The notes under the pieces: generated by a model | Told to the model about the DNA's origin: nothing | Databases searched by the model: none | What the model saw: only the letters and a program-made list of their open reading frames with translations | Made by a program: the position numbers and the translations under genes | In this document: positions 21,697 to 53,266 of the stretch, piece by piece | How the letters are laid out: every line of letters begins with the position of its first letter | How positions within the stretch are numbered: position 1 is the stretch's first letter | From: an uncultured Candidatus Rokubacteria bacterium | GTDB lineage: Bacteria > Methylomirabilota > Methylomirabilia > Rokubacteriales > CSP1-6 | Reading direction: 5' to 3' | DNA: 64,000 nt | Assembly (NCBI GenBank): GCA_963771355.1 | Contig: CAVYTA010000007.1 | Location: 384,001-448,000, forward strand

Positions 21697-21772
21697 AGGC
21701 GGGTAGCTCAGTTGGGAGAGCGCGGCCCTTACAAGGCTGAGGTCGGGAGTTCAATCCTCCCCCCGCCTACCA
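21697..21772 (+). tRNA. tRNA-Val(TAC)
   Basis: Cloverleaf: AGGCGGG/CCCGCCT acceptor, CGGCC-CTTACAA-GGCTG anticodon arm, TTCAATC T-loop, encoded CCA. Confidence 0.97.
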
Positions 21773-46808: not shown

Positions 46809-47684
46809 TCAGAGCTCCAGCATGCTCTTCTGCCCCGCCAGCCCGCGCGGGCGGAGAAGCAGGATGGCGGTCATGAGGAGGTACATGACCATGATGGAGC
46901 CGCGCGGGATGACGAGGTTCGAGAGCCCGCTGACGAGGCCGACCAGGAGGCCGCCCACCACCGCGCCCCAGAAGGAGCCGATGCCGCCGATCACCACCAC
47001 GATGAAGGCCGGCATCACCGCCTCCGCGCCGATGGTGGGCTTGAGGCTCCACATGGGCGCGGCCACCACGCCGGCCACCCCGGCCAGTGCGGTGCCGAGC
47101 GCGAAGACCAGATTGCGCATGCGGGTGAGGTTGATGCCCAGCGCGCGGACCATCTCGCCGTCGTGCGCGCCCGCCTTGATGATGGCGCCGTAGGGGGTCT
47201 TCTCGATGAACCACCACACCAGGGCCAGCAGCGTCACGGCCACCACCGCCACCAGCACGCGGTACTTGGAATAGTAGAGGAAGCCCAGGTGAAACGGTCC
47301 CGCCGCGAAGGCGGGGGCGGAGACGGTGTAGCCGCGCGGTCCCCAGACGATGCGAATGACCTCTTCCAGGGCGAGCGCAGCACCGAAGGTGAAGAGCAGG
47401 CCGAAGAGGGGATCCCGTCCATAGGTGCGGCGCACGCCGAGCTCGAGCACGAGCCCCACCAGCCCCACCAGCAGGGGCGCCAGGACGAGCGCGCCCAGCC
47501 AGCCCACCCACGGGCTCAACGCGAGGGCGAAGTAGCCGCCCAGCGCGAAGAGCACGCCGTGGCTGAAGTTGATGATCTCCATGGTGCCGAGGATGAGCAT
47601 GAAGCCCAGCGCGATCACCGCGTAGAGGAGTCCGAGGACGACTCCGTTCAGCAGGTGCGTCGCCACCTCGGCCAGATCGGGCAC
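46809..47684 (-). CDS. livH: ABC permease (LivH-like)
   Basis: LLNGVVLG, INFSHG, VVIGGIGS. Confidence 0.88.
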   Translation of the reverse strand: MPDLAEVATHLLNGVVLGLLYAVIALGFMLILGTMEIINFSHGVLFALGGYFALALSPWVGWLGALVLAPLLVGLVGLVLELGVRRTYGRDPLFGLLFTFGAALALEEVIRIVWGPRGYTVSAPAFAAGPFHLGFLYYSKYRVLVAVVAVTLLALVWWFIEKTPYGAIIKAGAHDGEMVRALGINLTRMRNLVFALGTALAGVAGVVAAPMWSLKPTIGAEAVMPAFIVVVIGGIGSFWGAVVGGLLVGLVSGLSNLVIPRGSIMVMYLLMTAILLLRPRGLAGQKSMLEL

Positions 47685-47748
47685 GTCAGGGCGCCGCCGC
47701 GGGCGCGAGGAGCGAGGAAGGCGGCTGAATGGATGAAGATCCAAAGAT

Positions 47749-47823
47749 GCCGGAGGGGGGCGGGGGCGCGCTCGCGGCGAATGCTGTACTGAGCAAGCGA
47801 GTGCGCCCCCGCCCCCCTCCGGC
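47749..47823. repeat. Long intergenic hairpin, copy 1 of a conserved-core element
   Basis: 27-bp stem around the 21-nt loop GGCGAATGCTGTACTGAGCAA. Confidence 0.85.
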
Positions 47824-47835
47824 CACCATATGGGT

Positions 47836-49131
47836 CTATCCTCCGTAGACGGGAGTATCCGCGATCGACTGCATCTTGCACTTGGACTGCGCCTGCGGCG
47901 GCGCCGCCTGCTCGGGCGCGATGTCCGCGATCATCTCGATCATGTCCCACTTCTCCTTCATCTGGTCCTCGCGCTTGGTGCGGGCGAGCGAGATCATCTG
48001 GCCCACCAGGTGGTCCCAGGGCCGGATGGTGGACGGGTGCTTGCGGAAGTTGTCGCGGATCACATGGCCCTCGAGCGCCTTGATCACCTCGTGGTTCCGA
48101 GTGGTGCCCGCCCGCTCGATGGCGCGCAGCATCTCGCGCATGGCGAGGTAGCCGTTGGAGGAGACGTTGTCGGGCACCGGGATGGGCGCCGACGCCCAGC
48201 GCTTGCGGAAGCGGTCCACGAACTCCTTGGAGCCGGGGCCGTCGACGGTGTAGTGCCAGGTGGTGCAGAAGTGGCCGAAGGCCTTCTTGGGGCCCAGCGC
48301 CACCAGGTCCGGGAAGTCCTGCTGCGGGAACACCCAGTGCGCGTCCTTGTCGGCGCCGAACTCGTAGGCCTGCTCGCGGAGGGCGGTCTGCTCGATTCCC
48401 GCCACGTTGGCCATGACCACCTGCGGCTTGGCATTCCGGATGCGCAGGAGCTGGGCGGAGAAATCGCGCGTGCCCTGGGGGATGAGGAGCTCGCCCAGCT
48501 CCTCCGCCCCCACCTTCTTCATGCTCTCGCGGGAGGCCGCGGTCGCGTTCTTGCCCCACACGTAGTCATGGGTGAGGAGGAACCACCGGGTGCCGAGGTT
48601 CTTGACCACCAGCGGTCCCAGCGCATTGGCGAACATCCAGTTGTTGGCGTCCCAGACGAAGTTGGTGCGCTGGCACTTCTCGTTGGTCACGGTGTCGGCG
48701 CTGGAGTTGCTGTTGAAGTAGATGATTCCGTAGCGCTGGGCGAGGTCACTCAGCGGCGCCGCCACGCCGCTGCTCAGCGCGCCGATCATGAAGTCGATAC
48801 GGTCCCGCTCGATGAGGCGCTGGGCCTTGCGCACCGCCACCGAGGCGTCGGTCTCGGTGTCCTCCCACCTGTACTCGATGGGCCGCCCCAGCACGCCGCC
48901 CCGGGCGTTCTGCTCCTCGATGGCGAGGATCATGCCGCGGCGGTCGGCCTGGCCGCTGTCCGCGAAGGTGCCGGTGGCGTCGCAGGTCAGCCCGATCAGG
49001 ATCGCTTTCTTGCCTTGCGCGCGCGCCCGGCGCCAGGGGCCGATGAAGCCCACGCCGGCGCCGAGGGCCGCCGCGCCCTTGAGGATGTTCCGCCGCGTGA
49101 TCCGGGTGCCGTCTCCGAGGTGTCGCTCCAT
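47836..49131 (-). CDS. ABC solute-binding protein (LivK-like, Tat signal)
   Basis: TRRNIL Tat motif, GGVLGRPIE, DYVWG. Confidence 0.9.
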   Translation of the reverse strand: MERHLGDGTRITRRNILKGAAALGAGVGFIGPWRRARAQGKKAILIGLTCDATGTFADSGQADRRGMILAIEEQNARGGVLGRPIEYRWEDTETDASVAVRKAQRLIERDRIDFMIGALSSGVAAPLSDLAQRYGIIYFNSNSSADTVTNEKCQRTNFVWDANNWMFANALGPLVVKNLGTRWFLLTHDYVWGKNATAASRESMKKVGAEELGELLIPQGTRDFSAQLLRIRNAKPQVVMANVAGIEQTALREQAYEFGADKDAHWVFPQQDFPDLVALGPKKAFGHFCTTWHYTVDGPGSKEFVDRFRKRWASAPIPVPDNVSSNGYLAMREMLRAIERAGTTRNHEVIKALEGHVIRDNFRKHPSTIRPWDHLVGQMISLARTKREDQMKEKWDMIEMIADIAPEQAAPPQAQSKCKMQSIADTPVYGG

Positions 49132-49156
49132 CGCGTGCCTCCTGGGTTGGGGTGGG

Positions 49157-49894
49157 TCAGGTGGTCTCGGCGAGGCGTCCCATCGCCTGCATCCGGTGGT
49201 GCTCGATGGCGCGCGCGGCGCGGTCGGCGTCGCCGTCCTCCAGCGCGCGCAGGATCTGTTCGTGCTCGGCCAGCGACTCGCGGGCGAACCCGCCCCGCCG
49301 GGCGTGCATGATGACGCGGTAGTACTCGCCGCGGTCCCAGACGTTCTGCAGCGTCTGGACCACCTGGCGGAGACCCGATGCCTCCCAGAGGAGGCGGTGG
49401 AACTGGCTGTCCGCCGCCACCGCGCGGGCGGCGTCCCCGGCGGCCCGCCCCGCCGCCATCTCCTTCTGGAGCGCGCGGAGCCGGGTCAGCAGGGCGGGCG
49501 AGATGCGCGTCCGCGCTTCGCGCACGCACAGGGCTTCCAGGGCCGCCATCATGAGGAAGCGCTCGCGGAACTCGTCGGCGGACAGCCCCGTGACCACCAC
49601 GTCCTTGTGGGGCGTGATGCGGACGAAGCCATCGCTCTCGAGCCGCCGCAGCGCCTGCATCACCGGAATGCGGCTCACCCCGGCGGCGACGGCGATGGCG
49701 TTGGCCACGATGCGCTCACCCGGGGCGAGGCGGCCCTCCATGATGGCCTTGCGGATGTCGCGATAGGCCAGCCCCTCGAGCGTCTCGTGCCGCGCAAGGG
49801 AGGGGAGGAGCGTGGGCGGCGCGGCGCTCGTCATCACCGTGCGGGCGGGGCGGGGCTTCGCGTGCGCGGCCTTGCGCGGCGCGCGGGTTTTCAC
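49157..49894 (-). CDS. GntR/FCD-family regulator
   Basis: GVSRIPVMQALRRLESDG, FHRLL, EHEQILRAL. Confidence 0.9.
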   Translation of the reverse strand: MKTRAPRKAAHAKPRPARTVMTSAAPPTLLPSLARHETLEGLAYRDIRKAIMEGRLAPGERIVANAIAVAAGVSRIPVMQALRRLESDGFVRITPHKDVVVTGLSADEFRERFLMMAALEALCVREARTRISPALLTRLRALQKEMAAGRAAGDAARAVAADSQFHRLLWEASGLRQVVQTLQNVWDRGEYYRVIMHARRGGFARESLAEHEQILRALEDGDADRAARAIEHHRMQAMGRLAETT

Positions 49895-51645
49895 GCGAGC
49901 CGGAAGCCCCGCGCGGTCTCGGCGTCCTGCACGGGTCGGCAGCCCCGGAGGAAGTCGAAATCGACGCCCTCATCGGCCTGAAGCACGTGGTCGAGGAAGA
50001 GGCGGAGATAGCCGCCGGTGACGCCGTCCGGCCGCGGCCGCCACGCCGCCTTGCGCTGCGCCAGGTCCGCCTCGGGTACGAGGAGCGACAGACGGCGGTG
50101 CGGGACGTCCAGCTCGATCTCGTCGCCGTCGCGCACCAGGGCCAGCGGGCCGCCCACCGCGGATTCCGGCGCCACGTGGAGGATGACGGTGCCGTAGGAG
50201 GTGCCGCTCATCCGCGCGTCCGAGATCCGCACCATGTCCTTGACGCCGGCCTTGAGCAGGCGCGCCGGGATGGGAGCGGCGCCTGCCTCCGGCATGCCGG
50301 GACCGCCCTTGGGCCCCGACTGCTTGAGCACGAGCACGCTCGTCTCGTCGATGACGAGGTTCGGATCGTCGATGCGTCGCTCGAGATCCAGCGCGTCCTC
50401 GAACACCACCGCGCGGCCGCGATGGGTGAGGAGATGCGCGGAGGCGGCGGACTGCTTGAGGACCGCGCCGCCCGGACAGAGATTGCCGGTGAGGATGACG
50501 GTGCCGCCCTCGGGCGCGAGCGGCATCCCGAGCGGCCGGATCACGTCGGGGTTGTGGCAGACCGCGTCACGGACATTGTCGCCCAGCGTGCGCCCGTTCA
50601 CGCCTCGCGCGCGATCGTGCAGCAGCGGGAGGAGCTCCTTGAGCACCGCCGGGAGCCCGCCCGCATAGTAGAAGTCCTCCATCAGGTACTTGCCGGACGG
50701 GCGCACGTTGACGAGGAGCGGCGTCGAGCGAGACAGGTCGTCGAAGCGCTGGAGCGGCAGGGAAACCCCCACGCGTCCGGCCAGCGCCACCAGGTGCACG
50801 ATGGCGTTGGTGGAGCCGCCGACGGCCATGTCGGTGCGGATGGCGTTATCGAAGGCGGCCGCGGTGAGGATCTCGGAGGGCTTGGGGCCGCGGGCCCGCG
50901 CCATCTCCACCGCGAGCCGGCCGCTCTCCTCGGCCAGGACCAGGCGCCGCGAGTCGGCGGCGGGGATGGCGGCGTTGCCGGGCAGCGCCATGCCGAGCGT
51001 CTCCGCCATCGCCGCCATGGTGGAGGCCGTCCCCATGACCATGCAGTGGCCCGCGGAGCGCGAGAGGCAGCCTTCCACCTCGGCCATGGTCTCGTCCGTG
51101 ATCTCGCCCGCGCGCCGCTGCGCCCAGATCTTCCGCGCGTCGGTGCCGGAGCCGAGCGTCTGGCCGCCCCACATGCCGCGCAGCATGGGCCCGCCCGTCA
51201 CCATGATGGCGGGCACGTCGGCGGAGGCGGCTCCCATGAGCATGGCCGGCGTGGTCTTGTCACAGCCGGCCAGCAGCACGACGGCGTCGAGCGGATAGGC
51301 GCGGATGCACTCCTCCACGTCCATGGCCATGAGGTTGCGGAAGAGCATGGTGGTGGGCTTCATCAGGATCTCGCCCAGCGAGATCACCGGGAACTCGAGC
51401 GGGAAGCCGCCCGCGCTCCAGACGCCGCGCTTCACCGCCTCCGCCACCTGGCGGAGGTGGGCGTTGCAGTTGTTCAGCTCCGACCACGAGTTGCAGATGC
51501 CCACCACCGGGCGGCCGTCGAAGACGGCGTCCGAGAAGCCCTCCGCCTTGAGATACGAGCGGTGCATGAAGCCGTCGAGGTTCTTCGGCGCGAACCAGTT
51601 GCGGCTGCGGAGGGGGGGCGTGGCGGCGGGCGGGGTCGGCGGCAT
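49891..51645 (-). CDS. IlvD/Edd-family dehydratase (sugar-acid dehydratase-like)
   Basis: CNAHL, GCDKTT, CMVMGTASTM, GGSTN, DARMSGT. Confidence 0.93.
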   Translation of the reverse strand: MPPTPPAATPPLRSRNWFAPKNLDGFMHRSYLKAEGFSDAVFDGRPVVGICNSWSELNNCNAHLRQVAEAVKRGVWSAGGFPLEFPVISLGEILMKPTTMLFRNLMAMDVEECIRAYPLDAVVLLAGCDKTTPAMLMGAASADVPAIMVTGGPMLRGMWGGQTLGSGTDARKIWAQRRAGEITDETMAEVEGCLSRSAGHCMVMGTASTMAAMAETLGMALPGNAAIPAADSRRLVLAEESGRLAVEMARARGPKPSEILTAAAFDNAIRTDMAVGGSTNAIVHLVALAGRVGVSLPLQRFDDLSRSTPLLVNVRPSGKYLMEDFYYAGGLPAVLKELLPLLHDRARGVNGRTLGDNVRDAVCHNPDVIRPLGMPLAPEGGTVILTGNLCPGGAVLKQSAASAHLLTHRGRAVVFEDALDLERRIDDPNLVIDETSVLVLKQSGPKGGPGMPEAGAAPIPARLLKAGVKDMVRISDARMSGTSYGTVILHVAPESAVGGPLALVRDGDEIELDVPHRRLSLLVPEADLAQRKAAWRPRPDGVTGGYLRLFLDHVLQADEGVDFDFLRGCRPVQDAETARGFRLA

Positions 51646-51653
51646 GACGGGGA

Positions 51654-51669
51654 TTGTATACAATATACG
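51654..51669. promoter_or_regulatory. Probable GntR operator overlapping the dehydratase promoter
   Basis: Palindrome TTGTATACAA plus an adjacent TATAC half-site; AT-rich patch 8 nt from the ATG. Confidence 0.7.
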
Positions 51670-51687
51670 ACCGGGGTCTTGTCAAGG

Positions 51688-51772
51688 GGCCAGAGCGCAG
51701 CCGGGGGCGCGGCGCTCGCTTGCTCAGTACAGCATTCGCCGCGAACGCCGCGCCCCCGGCTGCGCTCTGGCC
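51688..51772. repeat. Long intergenic hairpin, copy 2 (inverted) of the conserved-core element
   Basis: 32-bp stem with one mismatch around TTGCTCAGTACAGCATTCGCC, the reverse complement of the copy 1 loop. Confidence 0.85.
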
Positions 51773-51778
51773 GCCAGC

Positions 51779-53050
51779 CTACACGGTCTGCGCGATCGGG
51801 GAGCCCGCCGGTAGCTCCGCCTCGCGCCAGTCGGCGCCGCGCGGCAGTACGGCCTCGGCGGCGGCGAGCGTCGCGTACGTGGGCTCGATGCCGCGCGGGG
51901 TGCCACCCTCACTGACGACGCTCACCGCCTCCAGCAGCAGGCGGCGCGCCTGGATGATCGCGCGGTCCGCGGGGCCGAGGTGCTCGCGGCTGCGATCGAC
52001 GATCGAGCCCATGCCCTCCTGGATGGCGCGGTCCTGCACGTTGATGCCGTCGATGCCGGTGAAGCTCTCGGTCTTCTGGACCTGCCGGTCGAGCAGGTAA
52101 TTGTTCCGGCGATTGCGGATCGCGCGGAACGTCGTCTGATCGACGTCGAGCGGCCCGTTGCCGAGCCGCCGCTCGAGCCGGTCCTCTGCGGTGAGGGGCG
52201 CGGTGCCGCTGTACTCCCAGTTGTAGACCATGGTGTTCTCGTCGTCGATCGGAACCCACATGTGACCGGCCACCAGCGGCACGCCGCTCTCCGAGCGCGA
52301 GGGACGGATCTGGTGGAACGGCAAGATGAAGTGATAGGTCCGCACATGGAAGCTCGCCTCGTCGAGGGGCCGGACGCCCGCGTAGCGGTAGCCGTAGTCG
52401 GTGATGTCGACCTCGAGCGTCGGCGCCTTCCCGCGCACGAAGGGGTTGTCGGGCTTGAAGCCTGGCCGCGTGGTGTTGGTAGTGAGCAGCCGGTGCAGGA
52501 TGGGCGCGTGCGAGGTGTCGATGCCGCCCTCCAAGCCCTGCAGCCAGTTGCTCTCCTGGATCACCTTCGACACTTGGATGTGCGTCGCCGGGATACGCGT
52601 CCACGCGAAGGCCGGCGGCGCCGGCTTCCGCTCGGGCGGCCCCATGTAGACCCAGACCACGCTCCCCACCTCCACCGTGGGGTAGGAGGCGATGAAGACC
52701 TTGTCCTTGAACTGCCGCTCCTCGGGCTCGTTCATCATGTCCACGCAACGGCCGTCCACGTCGTATTTCCAGCCGTGGTAGACGCAGCGCAGTCCGCACT
52801 CTTCGTTGCGGCCGAAGAACAGCGAGGCCCGACGGTGCGGGCAGAACTCGTCGAGGAGTCCGACGCGGCCGCGCGTGTCGCGGAACGCGACGAGGTCCTC
52901 ACCCAGCAGCCGGACGCGGACGGGCGGACCATCTGGCTCCGGCAGCTCCCGCGCGAGCAGCGCGGGGATCCAGTACCGGCGCATCGTGGCGCCCATCGGC
53001 GTGCCCTGCCCGACCTCGGTCAGCCGCGCATTGTCCTCGCGTGACAGCAT
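51779..53050 (-). CDS. Rieske non-heme iron oxygenase, phthalate 4,5-dioxygenase-like alpha subunit
   Basis: CPHR...CVYHGW, EGGIDTSH-x4-H, QDRAIQEGMG. Confidence 0.92.
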   Translation of the reverse strand: MLSREDNARLTEVGQGTPMGATMRRYWIPALLARELPEPDGPPVRVRLLGEDLVAFRDTRGRVGLLDEFCPHRRASLFFGRNEECGLRCVYHGWKYDVDGRCVDMMNEPEERQFKDKVFIASYPTVEVGSVVWVYMGPPERKPAPPAFAWTRIPATHIQVSKVIQESNWLQGLEGGIDTSHAPILHRLLTTNTTRPGFKPDNPFVRGKAPTLEVDITDYGYRYAGVRPLDEASFHVRTYHFILPFHQIRPSRSESGVPLVAGHMWVPIDDENTMVYNWEYSGTAPLTAEDRLERRLGNGPLDVDQTTFRAIRNRRNNYLLDRQVQKTESFTGIDGINVQDRAIQEGMGSIVDRSREHLGPADRAIIQARRLLLEAVSVVSEGGTPRGIEPTYATLAAAEAVLPRGADWREAELPAGSPIAQTV

Positions 53051-53188
53051 GCTCGATCCTCCGTGACGGCGTCGCCGCCGGGCGGATGCGGTGAGCTCCC
53101 GACCGTTTGCGGGCAGTCTACCACCGAGCCGGATATCGGGCCCTTGCCTTCCAGGAAGGTGTTGTGTAACCTCGCGTAGTAGCGTCAC

Positions 53189-53266
53189 GGGCTCGTGGTG
53201 CAGCCTGGTTAGCACACTGGACTGTCAATCCAGAGGTCGCGGGTTCAATTCCCGTCGAGCCCGCCA
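53189..53266 (+). tRNA. tRNA-Asp(GTC)
   Basis: GGGCTCG/CGAGCCC acceptor, CTGGA-CTGTCAA-TCCAG anticodon arm, encoded CCA. Confidence 0.97.

Follow-up and report, generated by a model that had tools for sequence, protein, structure and literature searches.

What sort of element would hold the tip of a hairpin constant and let its stem diverge? The question is posed by a 64,000-nucleotide stretch of DNA (the window) from the genome of an uncultured Candidatus Rokubacteria bacterium (G000), in which two long hairpins share an identical 30-nt core in opposite orientations. Our analysis places both in a family-restricted palindromic repeat of 65 to 100 nt, which is probably a non-autonomous selfish DNA element whose tip is copied on single-stranded DNA and whose arms are kept paired by template switching. 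The repeat is dispersed, is present or absent at orthologous sites and resides in frame within genes; its arms are mirrored, its loops flip, its structure is strand specific and its tips track the genome that carries them.

The hairpins of the window

The core occurs exactly at 47772-47801 on the plus strand and at 51715-51744 on the minus strand, an arrangement first reported in the preliminary description and confirmed here, two matches having been found in 0 of 100 shuffled sequences. Copy 1 (47749-47823, plus strand, 89.5 bits) comprises a left arm (47749-47775), a 21-nt tip (47776-47796) and a right arm (47797-47823), and copy 2 (51688-51772, minus strand, 85.2 bits) has arms at 51688-51719 and 51741-51772 around a tip at 51720-51740. 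The stems of 27 and 32 bp around a 21-nt loop are likewise as first described, with one G·T mismatch each, and the folding z-scores of the window hairpins range from -7.7 to -10.6. The stems had been called unrelated; the copies are in fact 82% identical over 55 aligned nt, and the left arm is G rich in 145 of the 152 copies of the family. As had also been observed, the copies lie just past minus-strand stop codons (12 and 6 nt, respectively) and have no U-tract, intrinsic-terminator-like sites (a short GC stem-loop plus a U-run) numbering zero in 47550-52000. At the gathering threshold, Rfam matched two tRNAs in the window and nothing in the repeat; around copy 1 its matches were all subthreshold and mostly generic miRNA hairpins.

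Copy 1 occupies the junction between a gene for a branched-chain-type ABC solute-binding protein (SBP; 47836-49131, minus strand; PF13458 in the orthologue L175), whose stop codon is the one 12 nt away, and the downstream ABC permease gene (46809-47684, minus strand; PF02653, L064). Its tip is antisense to the mRNA, and the structured part of that tip, delimited by covariation in 64 copies, spans 47777-47794 on the plus strand. The same site is filled in G002, G003 and G006, where the arms are altered. The minus strand carries the tip of copy 2, in the same sense as the flanking genes; these are a Rieske oxygenase open reading frame (51779-53215, minus strand; PF00355 and PF19301 in the orthologue L176), which ends 6 nt from the copy, and a downstream IlvD/Edd-family dehydratase gene (49891-51645, minus strand; PF00920 in L176), followed by a gene at 49157-49894 (minus strand) that we take from its sequence to be GntR-like. 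The arm foot of copy 2 is of a type frequent in the genus (22 of 93 copies), and its site is empty in G001 and G004 and holds a tandem two-tip array in G005. The SBP, permease, dehydratase, GntR-like and Rieske reading frames are host genes and lie outside the element.

Distribution and host sites of the repeat

The two hairpins are not a special pair, since a genome-wide count gives eight copies in G000, and many relatives carry the family as well. The preliminary description had offered, as one possibility, a new dispersed repeat whose tip is conserved while its self-complementary stems vary; this proposal is supported, and the family has no match in Rfam. A covariance-model search found the repeat in 38 of the 92 genomes of one bacterial family but in none of the 57 drawn from ten other families of the phylum. 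Matches were present in 43 of 141 family genomes, at 1 to 33 apiece. Exact matches are confined to records titled Rokubacteria or Methylomirabilota, and none occurred in the viral contigs, plasmids or phages searched. The repeat was found in a single bacterial family, likely Rokubacteria.

The search for empty sites succeeded: of 55 copies from relatives used as queries against G000, 23 mapped to syntenic sites that are empty, one of these through an alignment artefact; the sites of 18 were filled, and 14 had no paired site. Recent insertion was not caught, all eight G000 copies having filled orthologues in other species. No empty allele among those compared was so close that junctions or a target duplication could be delimited, and close-allele searches gave only diverged intergenic DNA. 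Four likely artefacts, L012 and L057 (a 127-bp palindrome at a contig end) and L049 and L107 (an apparent chimeric join), were left out of the alignments used to build models, of the labelled set and of the mismatch counts per site; the stop-codon context count includes L049, and one site count includes L107. L126 and the second match in L438 were rejected as false motif matches.

Intergenic copies lie between tandem or convergent genes at 57 of 59 sites and between divergent genes at the other two. Five of the eight G000 copies are at SBP-to-permease junctions, which make up 51 of 4,921 junctions by our own gene calls and a phmmer search seeded with the neighbors. One SBP-permease junction is filled in four genera, and many empty ones already have GC hairpins. 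At 11 of the 12 sites shared by several genera, all copies point the same way, which disfavors random fresh insertion.

Open reading frames contain 54 of the 152 copies, at 21 sites, and for 51 of these both flanks match the same G000 protein. The in-frame copies, which occur in genera other than that of the window, reside in rsmE, polA (DNA polymerase I), mutS2, the linkers of PDH E2 and other genes, with the tip sense at 9 sites and antisense at 12; the encoded peptides vary with frame and orientation. Insert-bearing rsmE alleles form one clade of nine genomes (support 96/94) and have 47 to 58 amino acids over a stretch that takes 33 to 36 in alleles without the insert. The net insert is often shorter than the element, being 15 to 18 amino acids for 71 to 81 nt in rsmE and zero in the E2 linkers.

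Fold and turnover of tip and arms

Judged from its sequence, the tip is a strand-specific fold. It pairs G2-C19 and C3-G18, then the tandem G4·A17 and A5·G16, predicted to be sheared, then A6-T15, below an 8-nt apical loop. This fold is 97.4% paired in 64 copies, a value reached in 0 of 500 shuffles, and it covaries (C-G in 58 and T-A in 5; A-T in 39 and G-C in 20). G4, A5, T7, G16 and A17 are invariant; the invariant columns are in the tip, and the arms covary. The inner TGCT/AGCA mini-stem proposed earlier was rejected in favor of the tandem-G·A fold, with 0 compensatory changes and 81% pairing, equal to that of shuffles, in the 64 diverse copies.

In the arms, 4,254 of 4,527 stem pairs are Watson-Crick, 18 of 20 columns covary, the purine fraction is 0.63 and the G-bias of the left arm weakens away from the tip. 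A mirrored 9-bp indel separates the close relatives L111 and L194, and loop orientation can flip independently at the same site (L201 versus L210, L021 and L242; L043 versus L120; L116 versus L128). Template switching gives arm homogenization and spacer inversion, according to two sources (PMC8604942; PMC5941160), and it predicts just such mirrored arm changes and loop flips.

The tips behave differently from the arms. At the 12 multi-genus sites, tip identity across genera is 0.761; the same genus pairs give 0.762 at their other sites, and identity to the other copies of the same genome is 0.874 (own higher at 9 of 12 sites, p = 0.007), whereas the arms carry a weak site signal (0.675 versus 0.633; 9 of 12 sites, p = 0.066); these p-values overstate, because the catalogue of 152 copies is biased to the best-scoring, fetched copies and the copies are phylogenetically non-independent. 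Because tips resemble their own genome's copies and not the same site elsewhere, they appear to have been overwritten or re-inserted. Half-element deletion remnants (L307 and L311) also occur, and arm-like "empty" alleles therefore cannot give the direction of change.

If the repeat is a selfish element, a tip of about 20 to 35 nt, with its strand-specific cap and predicted tandem G·A pairs, is likely the part recognized and copied on single-stranded DNA. Tips would be copied into new sites and over old copies, either because the repair of hairpins leads to ectopic conversion or because an unlinked nuclease or strand-transferase re-inserts them. Divergence of the G-rich arms likely proceeds site by site, and replication template switching would keep them complementary and give rise to both arm symmetry and loop flips. 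The persistence of copies at SBP-to-permease junctions may be due to an effect that any strong hairpin would have in that position, namely stabilizing the upstream mRNA or attenuating read-through, for which the malE-malF REP is a precedent.

The hairpins may, as suggested earlier, be substrates of a HUH or tyrosine recombinase, but no such gene adjoins any copy. Our searches for a mobilizing gene covered Y1_Tnp, GIY-YIG, DUF559, IS110, RT and Y2. No RAYT, Ssn, IS110, IS91 or RT gene was linked to the repeat, and the expectation that copies might flank RAYT, TnpA or IS110 genes was not borne out. Y1_Tnp (PF01797) was found in 0 of 8 genus genomes and in 29 of 151 family genomes, its 30 loci holding no repeat copy and the flanks read there having unrelated TIRs. 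GIY-YIG loci (22 from 10 genomes) had no copy, DUF559 was found in 0 of 5 genomes, RT was not found in G000, G005 or G006, and the 30 Y2 and 17 IS110 loci gave no credible copy (weak matches at E = 0.05, within a Y2 reading frame, and E = 0.28). Scanning 114 plus 31 neighbor and host proteins yielded no transposase, recombinase, HUH or GIY-YIG protein; 13 of these proteins had no Pfam family, and one was a PD-(D/E)XK nuclease. Among the genes between same-family repeats in G000, nothing was linked to this hairpin family.

A bolder account of the same turnover, which we entertain tentatively, is a transposase-free selfish hairpin whose structured tip of about 20 nt "homes" between resident copies, rewriting protein loops of 20 to 30 residues. 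Old insertions, some predating genera and some in essential genes, would keep their place and orientation, the lineage's current master would repeatedly overwrite their tips, and template switching would let the two arms of a copy rewrite one another. The host's own machinery for hairpin repair would be at work, or else an unrecognized single-stranded-DNA enzyme that reads tandem-G·A caps, perhaps one common to the genome's other G·A-rich repeat families. If this were true, a DNA structure would be concertedly rewriting protein loops, and would be doing so still.

That the tip is instead an RNA motif, whether a protein-binding hairpin in cis on mRNA or a small independent RNA, with its tandem-G·A fold under RNA-level selection, seems unlikely. 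G·T mismatches exceed A·C mismatches (47 versus 7 of 80 sites), which together with the compensatory pairs around the G·A tandem resembles an RNA signature; copies are nearly always downstream of at least one gene, as the two divergent sites in 59 attest; and REPs function as terminators and stabilizers, according to one report (10.64898/2026.03.23.713779). However, among tandem sites the strand that folds runs antisense to both neighbors at 25 and sense at 9, within genes it is antisense at 12 of the 21 sites, and the same mismatch bias persists where the tip is antisense (32:6 in intergenic sites, 14:3 in genes). Aligned copies have no visible conserved flanking promoter or terminator, and Rfam offers only the subthreshold matches described above. 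The kink-turn consensus register pairs position 6 with 12; here position 6 covaries with 15, and the kink-turn reading was rejected. Five RNA-labelled runs and one guessed RNA run (5 to 23% of the words of the stretch) were excluded from the evidence. Since the fold has no preference for the mRNA strand, action at the DNA level, as suggested in the preliminary description, is favored.

A further reading is a site for a host DNA-binding protein, a cruciform or single-stranded hairpin selected by the host and drifting with lineage-specific preference, which we judge improbable. The persistence of copies across genera, as at the SBP-permease junction filled in four, and the lineage-specific tip subtypes agree with such a site, and the sheared-G·A single-stranded hairpins of Streptomyces telomeres are protein-binding features (PMC5449611). 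Yet relatives differ in copy number, from 0 to 33, and many genomes have none; half-element deletion remnants exist; and coordinated multi-base and length changes across dispersed tips require copying rather than independent mutation.

We give little credence to the idea that only the tip and inner stem, about 30 to 35 nt, are mobile and that the arms come from fold-back copying of the target or from a pre-existing host hairpin. The short net insertions in rsmE and the E2 linkers, the fading G-bias of the left arm, the GC hairpins at empty SBP-permease junctions and the match of distal arm ends to sister "empty" alleles (L257 and L263) point that way. Against this, random target copying would not be expected to give G-rich left arms in 145 of 152 copies, one arm foot is common to 22 of 93 copies at unrelated sites, and L257 and L263 may themselves be deletions.

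It is very improbable that recombination between the two window copies inverts the SBP-GntR-dehydratase segment they had been described as bracketing, and this reading was rejected. The copies are inverted, with 3.9 kb between them, in G000, in G002 and in contig loci L175/L176, but no inverted allele is present in the relatives' assemblies examined, which have one copy, both or neither (copy 1 alone in G003 and G006, neither in G001 and G004, tips in direct orientation in the G005 assembly), operon orientation is kept where the flanking genes are retained, no recombinase gene adjoins copy 1 or copy 2, and none of the other six copies in G000 is paired.

Known systems and significance

The selfish element that we favor resembles the REP/BIME/REPIN-RAYT systems, as portrayed in three sources (PMC3733652; PMC3116915; PMC8266576), in being a short dispersed palindrome found mostly between tandem or convergent genes. 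Like them it is lineage restricted, forms tandem arrays on occasion, has members inside genes and shows hairpin irregularities specific to one strand, such as TnpA-REP reads. In REPINs, by the same sources, the feet are conserved and the spacer is variable, whereas here the tip is conserved and the 14- to 55-bp arms vary. GTAG lies within 12 nt 5' of the stem at just 2 of 80 sites, the CGTC/GTCA tag of CGTC-REP/Ssn repeats is present at just 6 of 80, no RAYT is linked and copy number is low (1 to 33). Rickettsia palindromic elements (RPEs) and intragenic REPs likewise sit in frame within numerous conserved genes that are unrelated to one another, and no transposase is known for them, but RPE-1 is about 150 bp and encodes a conserved peptide (PMC10969869; PMC3733652); the present repeat has 65 to 100 nt, is read either way round and in several frames, at times takes the place of linker sequence and adds no length, and has arms that co-evolve inside coding DNA.

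Hairpin repeats read as single-stranded DNA by Ssn (GIY-YIG) nucleases, NTS/SRM, are a plausible model for an unlinked cutter; the SRMs are CGTC-type hairpins of about 28 to 30 nt that flank ssnA and whose loop is dispensable for cutting (PMC11893778), whereas here the loop is the conserved part and 22 GIY-YIG loci have no copy. In the target hairpin/cruciform of the phage BPP-1 DGR, stem structure matters while its sequence is free, and the loop acts by sequence at the DNA level; that hairpin is one site of 24 bp next to a variable repeat and an RT (PMC3240598), and no RT was found in G000, G005 or G006. Yeast mitochondrial GC clusters are also palindromic, GC rich and non-autonomous, and they propagate, merge and exchange through recombination (PMC4478555), but they are organellar, and no sequence relationship to them is claimed. 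As for MITE features, the termini are variable, with one type of foot in 22 of 93 copies, and no direct repeat adjoins the stem feet, which may not be the true ends, at 73 of 80 sites. A BoxC/PIT triplex repeat was rejected, the best mirror 12-mer match being 9.25 versus 9.28 in shuffled sequence (80 sites). No description of this element was found in the literature searched, and the repeat is apparently an undescribed, REP/RPE-like one.

How small palindromes spread without a linked transposase is an open question for RPEs, intragenic REPs and the CGTC REPs treated in PMC3733652. The present repeat separates its parts unusually cleanly: its tip follows the genome, its arms follow the site, and dozens of orthologous copies lie inside genes of different genera. 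It thereby offers a defined bait of about 21 nt with which to pull down the protein that acts on it, and a natural collection of cases in which to study template switching within coding DNA. In the Rokubacteria themselves, it accounts for some short-read assembly breaks at its sites and for the odd Gly/Pro-rich inserts of 15 to 25 residues in rsmE, polA, mutS2 and PDH E2.

A conserved tip on variable arms

The window carries two hairpins, copy 1 at 47749-47823 (+) and copy 2 at 51688-51772 (-), which share an identical 30-nt core, with no third exact occurrence in the window; the two cores point in opposite directions, and none of the shuffles yielded such a pair. The preliminary description had correctly given their stems as 27 and 32 bp around a 21-nt loop, placed them after stop codons and noted the absence of a U-tract. 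Each stem was found to contain one G·T, the distances from the stop codons are 12 and 6 nt, and neither copy showed a terminator signature. The earlier statement that the stems are unrelated did not hold, the arms of the two copies being 82% identical over 55 aligned nt. Whether folded as RNA or as DNA, both hairpins were far more stable than shuffles. Upstream of the dehydratase gene, the palindrome TGTATACA (51654-51663), which looks like a GntR-type operator, is kept in relatives G001-G006 with or without copy 2. The window also contains two tRNA genes (21697-21769 and 53189-53263).

That the core belongs to a dispersed family, as had been proposed, was borne out: pattern search, hairpin scan and covariance model gave eight copies in the window genome, and relatives were positive too. 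A 20-nt pattern matched in 7/7 congeners and 0/33 other relatives, and all 33 exact GTDB matches carried Candidatus Rokubacteria or Methylomirabilota in their record titles. One covariance model, built from 49 copies, was positive in 43/141 family genomes (16/48 genera), and a second, from 78 copies, in 38/92 family genomes versus 0/57 genomes of ten other families. The repeat was present in 38 metagenome stretches, and searches of viral, phage and plasmid sequences gave no matches. Compared with Rfam, as the preliminary description had suggested, it matched no family, and literature searches, with most subscription journals outside their coverage, found no account of it. This 65- to 100-nt family, here called the tip-hairpin repeat, is real and apparently not previously described.

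Its anatomy was examined in 152 labeled copies, which represented 40 genomes and 15 genera and occupied 80 sites with assignable neighbors; they were drawn from the fetched copies, a best-scoring subset, with metagenome loci excluded. Stem length had a median of 28 bp (range, 14 to 55), 4254 of 4527 stem pairs were Watson-Crick, the left arm was G rich in 145 copies, and compensatory change was seen in 18 of 20 stem columns of a gap-free alignment. In the tip, the conserved loop of about 21 nt, positions G4, A5, T7, G16, and A17 were invariant among 64 diverse copies, and the pairs on either side of its two GA dinucleotides covaried (C-G in 58 and T-A in 5; A-T in 39 and G-C in 20). These flanking positions were 97.4% paired, a value matched by 0/500 shuffles; they were also examined in 40 and 50 distinct cores, where the letters were constrained by the search expression. 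From this covariation, the tip is predicted not to be an open loop but to form tandem G·A pairs, presumably of sheared geometry, beneath a loop of 8 to 14 nt. For the TGCT/AGCA mini-stem earlier proposed within the loop, no covariation was seen.

The tip fold is possible on one strand only, in agreement with stem mismatches in which G·T exceeded A·C at 47 versus 7 of the 80 sites. This bias was 45:5 near the tip, where it is partly inherited, and 38:16 distally, and was also present where the tip is antisense to genes. Tip orientation showed no sense bias relative to transcription: the tip was antisense at 25 and sense at 9 tandem intergenic sites, and antisense at 12 and sense at 9 in-gene sites.

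Occupancy, gene invasion and turnover

Querying the window genome with 55 copies from relatives yielded 23 empty sites (one an artifact), 18 filled sites and 14 queries without a syntenic pair. The site of copy 2 was empty in G001 and G004 and held a tandem two-tip array in G005. At the locus in G001 and G004 (L112 and L113), dehydratase and GntR genes are followed directly by an FAD oxidoreductase gene, the solute-binding protein (SBP) and permease genes of the window operon being missing. In G006, at the orthologue of the copy 1 site (L067), a different purine/pyrimidine palindromic repeat adjoins the tip-hairpin repeat. Many copies in G005 lie at contig ends; a perfect palindrome of 127 bp that takes in the end of a gene (L012/L057, at the end of C54) and two SBP paralogue ends joined through the tip (L107, on C366) are probably assembly artifacts.

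None of 59 copies in the window genus lay inside an open reading frame, versus 54 copies at 21 sites outside it, 51 of which had both flanks homologous to one and the same protein of the window genome. Host proteins include RsmE, DNA polymerase I, MutS2, ComEC, two PDH E2 linkers, gamma-glutamyltransferases, a B12 radical SAM enzyme, MFS, MaoC, and AMP-ligases. Among 29 rsmE alleles extracted from the 30 best-scoring loci, the relevant segment was 47 to 58 aa in nine and 33 to 36 aa in the others; the nine formed one clade (support of 96/94, the bootstrap not being fully settled), and the insert directly precedes the conserved GPEGG motif, at a point where alignments with solved RsmE structures are interrupted. 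Net length gain was often less than the element length and was about zero in the E2 linkers, and the finding of half-element remnants indicates that deletion also happens.

Tips appeared to track the genome rather than the site. At the 12 sites common to more than one genus, orientation was uniform at 11, and cross-genus tip identity (0.761) equaled that of other sites of the same genus pairs (0.762); identity to the other copies of the same genome was 0.874, exceeding the cross-genus value at 9/12 sites (p=0.007). The arms at these sites carried a weak site signal (0.675 versus 0.633; p=0.066). This apparent homogenization of tips has two readings: either the tips of resident insertions are overwritten by the current type of the lineage, or new copies have inserted time after time into old copies or at identical positions, always in one orientation. 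Both the tandem tip arrays and a 58-aa rsmE allele that seems to carry an additional remnant of an arm are consistent with re-insertion.

Arms vary and yet remain complementary. At the copy 1 site, a comparison of two close relatives (flanks 88 to 94% identical) showed a compensatory pair and a 9-bp indel occurring in mirror image on the two arms; arms within rsmE remain complementary despite amino acid changes, and at three sites, orthologous or paralogous, the loop is inverted. Polymerase template switching is reported to cause arm homogenization and spacer inversion (PMC8604942; PMC5941160). Template switching alone does not account for the compensatory changes flanking the G·A tandem; these suggest that the fold of the tip is under selection.

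Movers and related repeats

No mover emerged when 114 proteins, representing clusters of 224 neighbor or host proteins, and 31/70 further proteins were scanned against Pfam: the scans showed only ordinary genes, one of them encoding a PD-(D/E)XK nuclease and 13 matching no family. Y1 transposases were absent from eight genus genomes and present in 29/151 family genomes, where their terminal repeats were unrelated to the tip-hairpin repeat wherever flanks were read. These loci (L327-L350) are mostly single-copy, RAYT-like genes of about 300 aa, several at one conserved locus, bounded by GGGGTCAG-type inverted repeats and resembling the TIR-flanked RAYTs described in PMC3733652. Model scans of Y1, Y2, GIY-YIG, IS110, and RT loci found no credible copy. 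Because all copies in the window genome have filled orthologues in other species, the repeat may be inactive in this lineage.

Three other repeats of the window genome were noted. Family B, a second long hairpin repeat with about 16 intergenic members, holds IS110-family elements in its inner loop (C6:2705447-2706379 and C8:62338-63270; in G006, L389 and L392), from which this IS110 clade appears to target it; in G116, a related IS110 lies in another structured repeat. The inner loop of family B (C5:125.4k and 919.6k; C6:1873k and 1935k) is closed by GCGA...GAGC, the tandem-GA-like arrangement also seen in the tip-hairpin repeat, and the two may share a recognition factor. Family C (C5:255189-255343 and 255467-255616; C7:557666-557824) follows the design of the tip-hairpin repeat at larger scale: its hairpins are long, their stems vary and their loops of 80 to 97 nt are conserved. 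Family D, a GA/GNA-rich repeat of about 30 to 60 nt, often tandem, occupies about 31 intergenic regions (e.g., C7:12213-12420 and C6:2264400-2264580); the copies read lie directly 3' of stop codons in sense orientation, and one (C6:1863.4k) is at a site holding the tip-hairpin repeat in G005 and G006.

The tip-hairpin repeat behaves like REP/REPIN and RPE elements, but the tags and gene linkage of such elements (PMC3733652, PMC8266576, PMC3116915, PMC10969869, and PMC11893778) were not found. A similar logic of stem structure plus loop sequence is already known from the DGR target hairpin (PMC3240598). The tip-hairpin repeat is a REP/RPE-like palindromic repeat, set apart by its inverted pattern of conservation, in-frame gene invasion and apparent tip homogenization.

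A likely secondary use at SBP-to-permease junctions

Five of the eight copies in the window genome, copy 1 included, lie at SBP-to-permease junctions, which make up 51 of its 4921 junctions by our gene calls; many other such junctions hold different GC hairpins. A stabilizer or attenuator role has been shown for an E. coli REP, according to 10.64898/2026.03.23.713779. A comparable role in mRNA stabilization or attenuation, which would not require the tip, is likely a secondary use of the junction copies.
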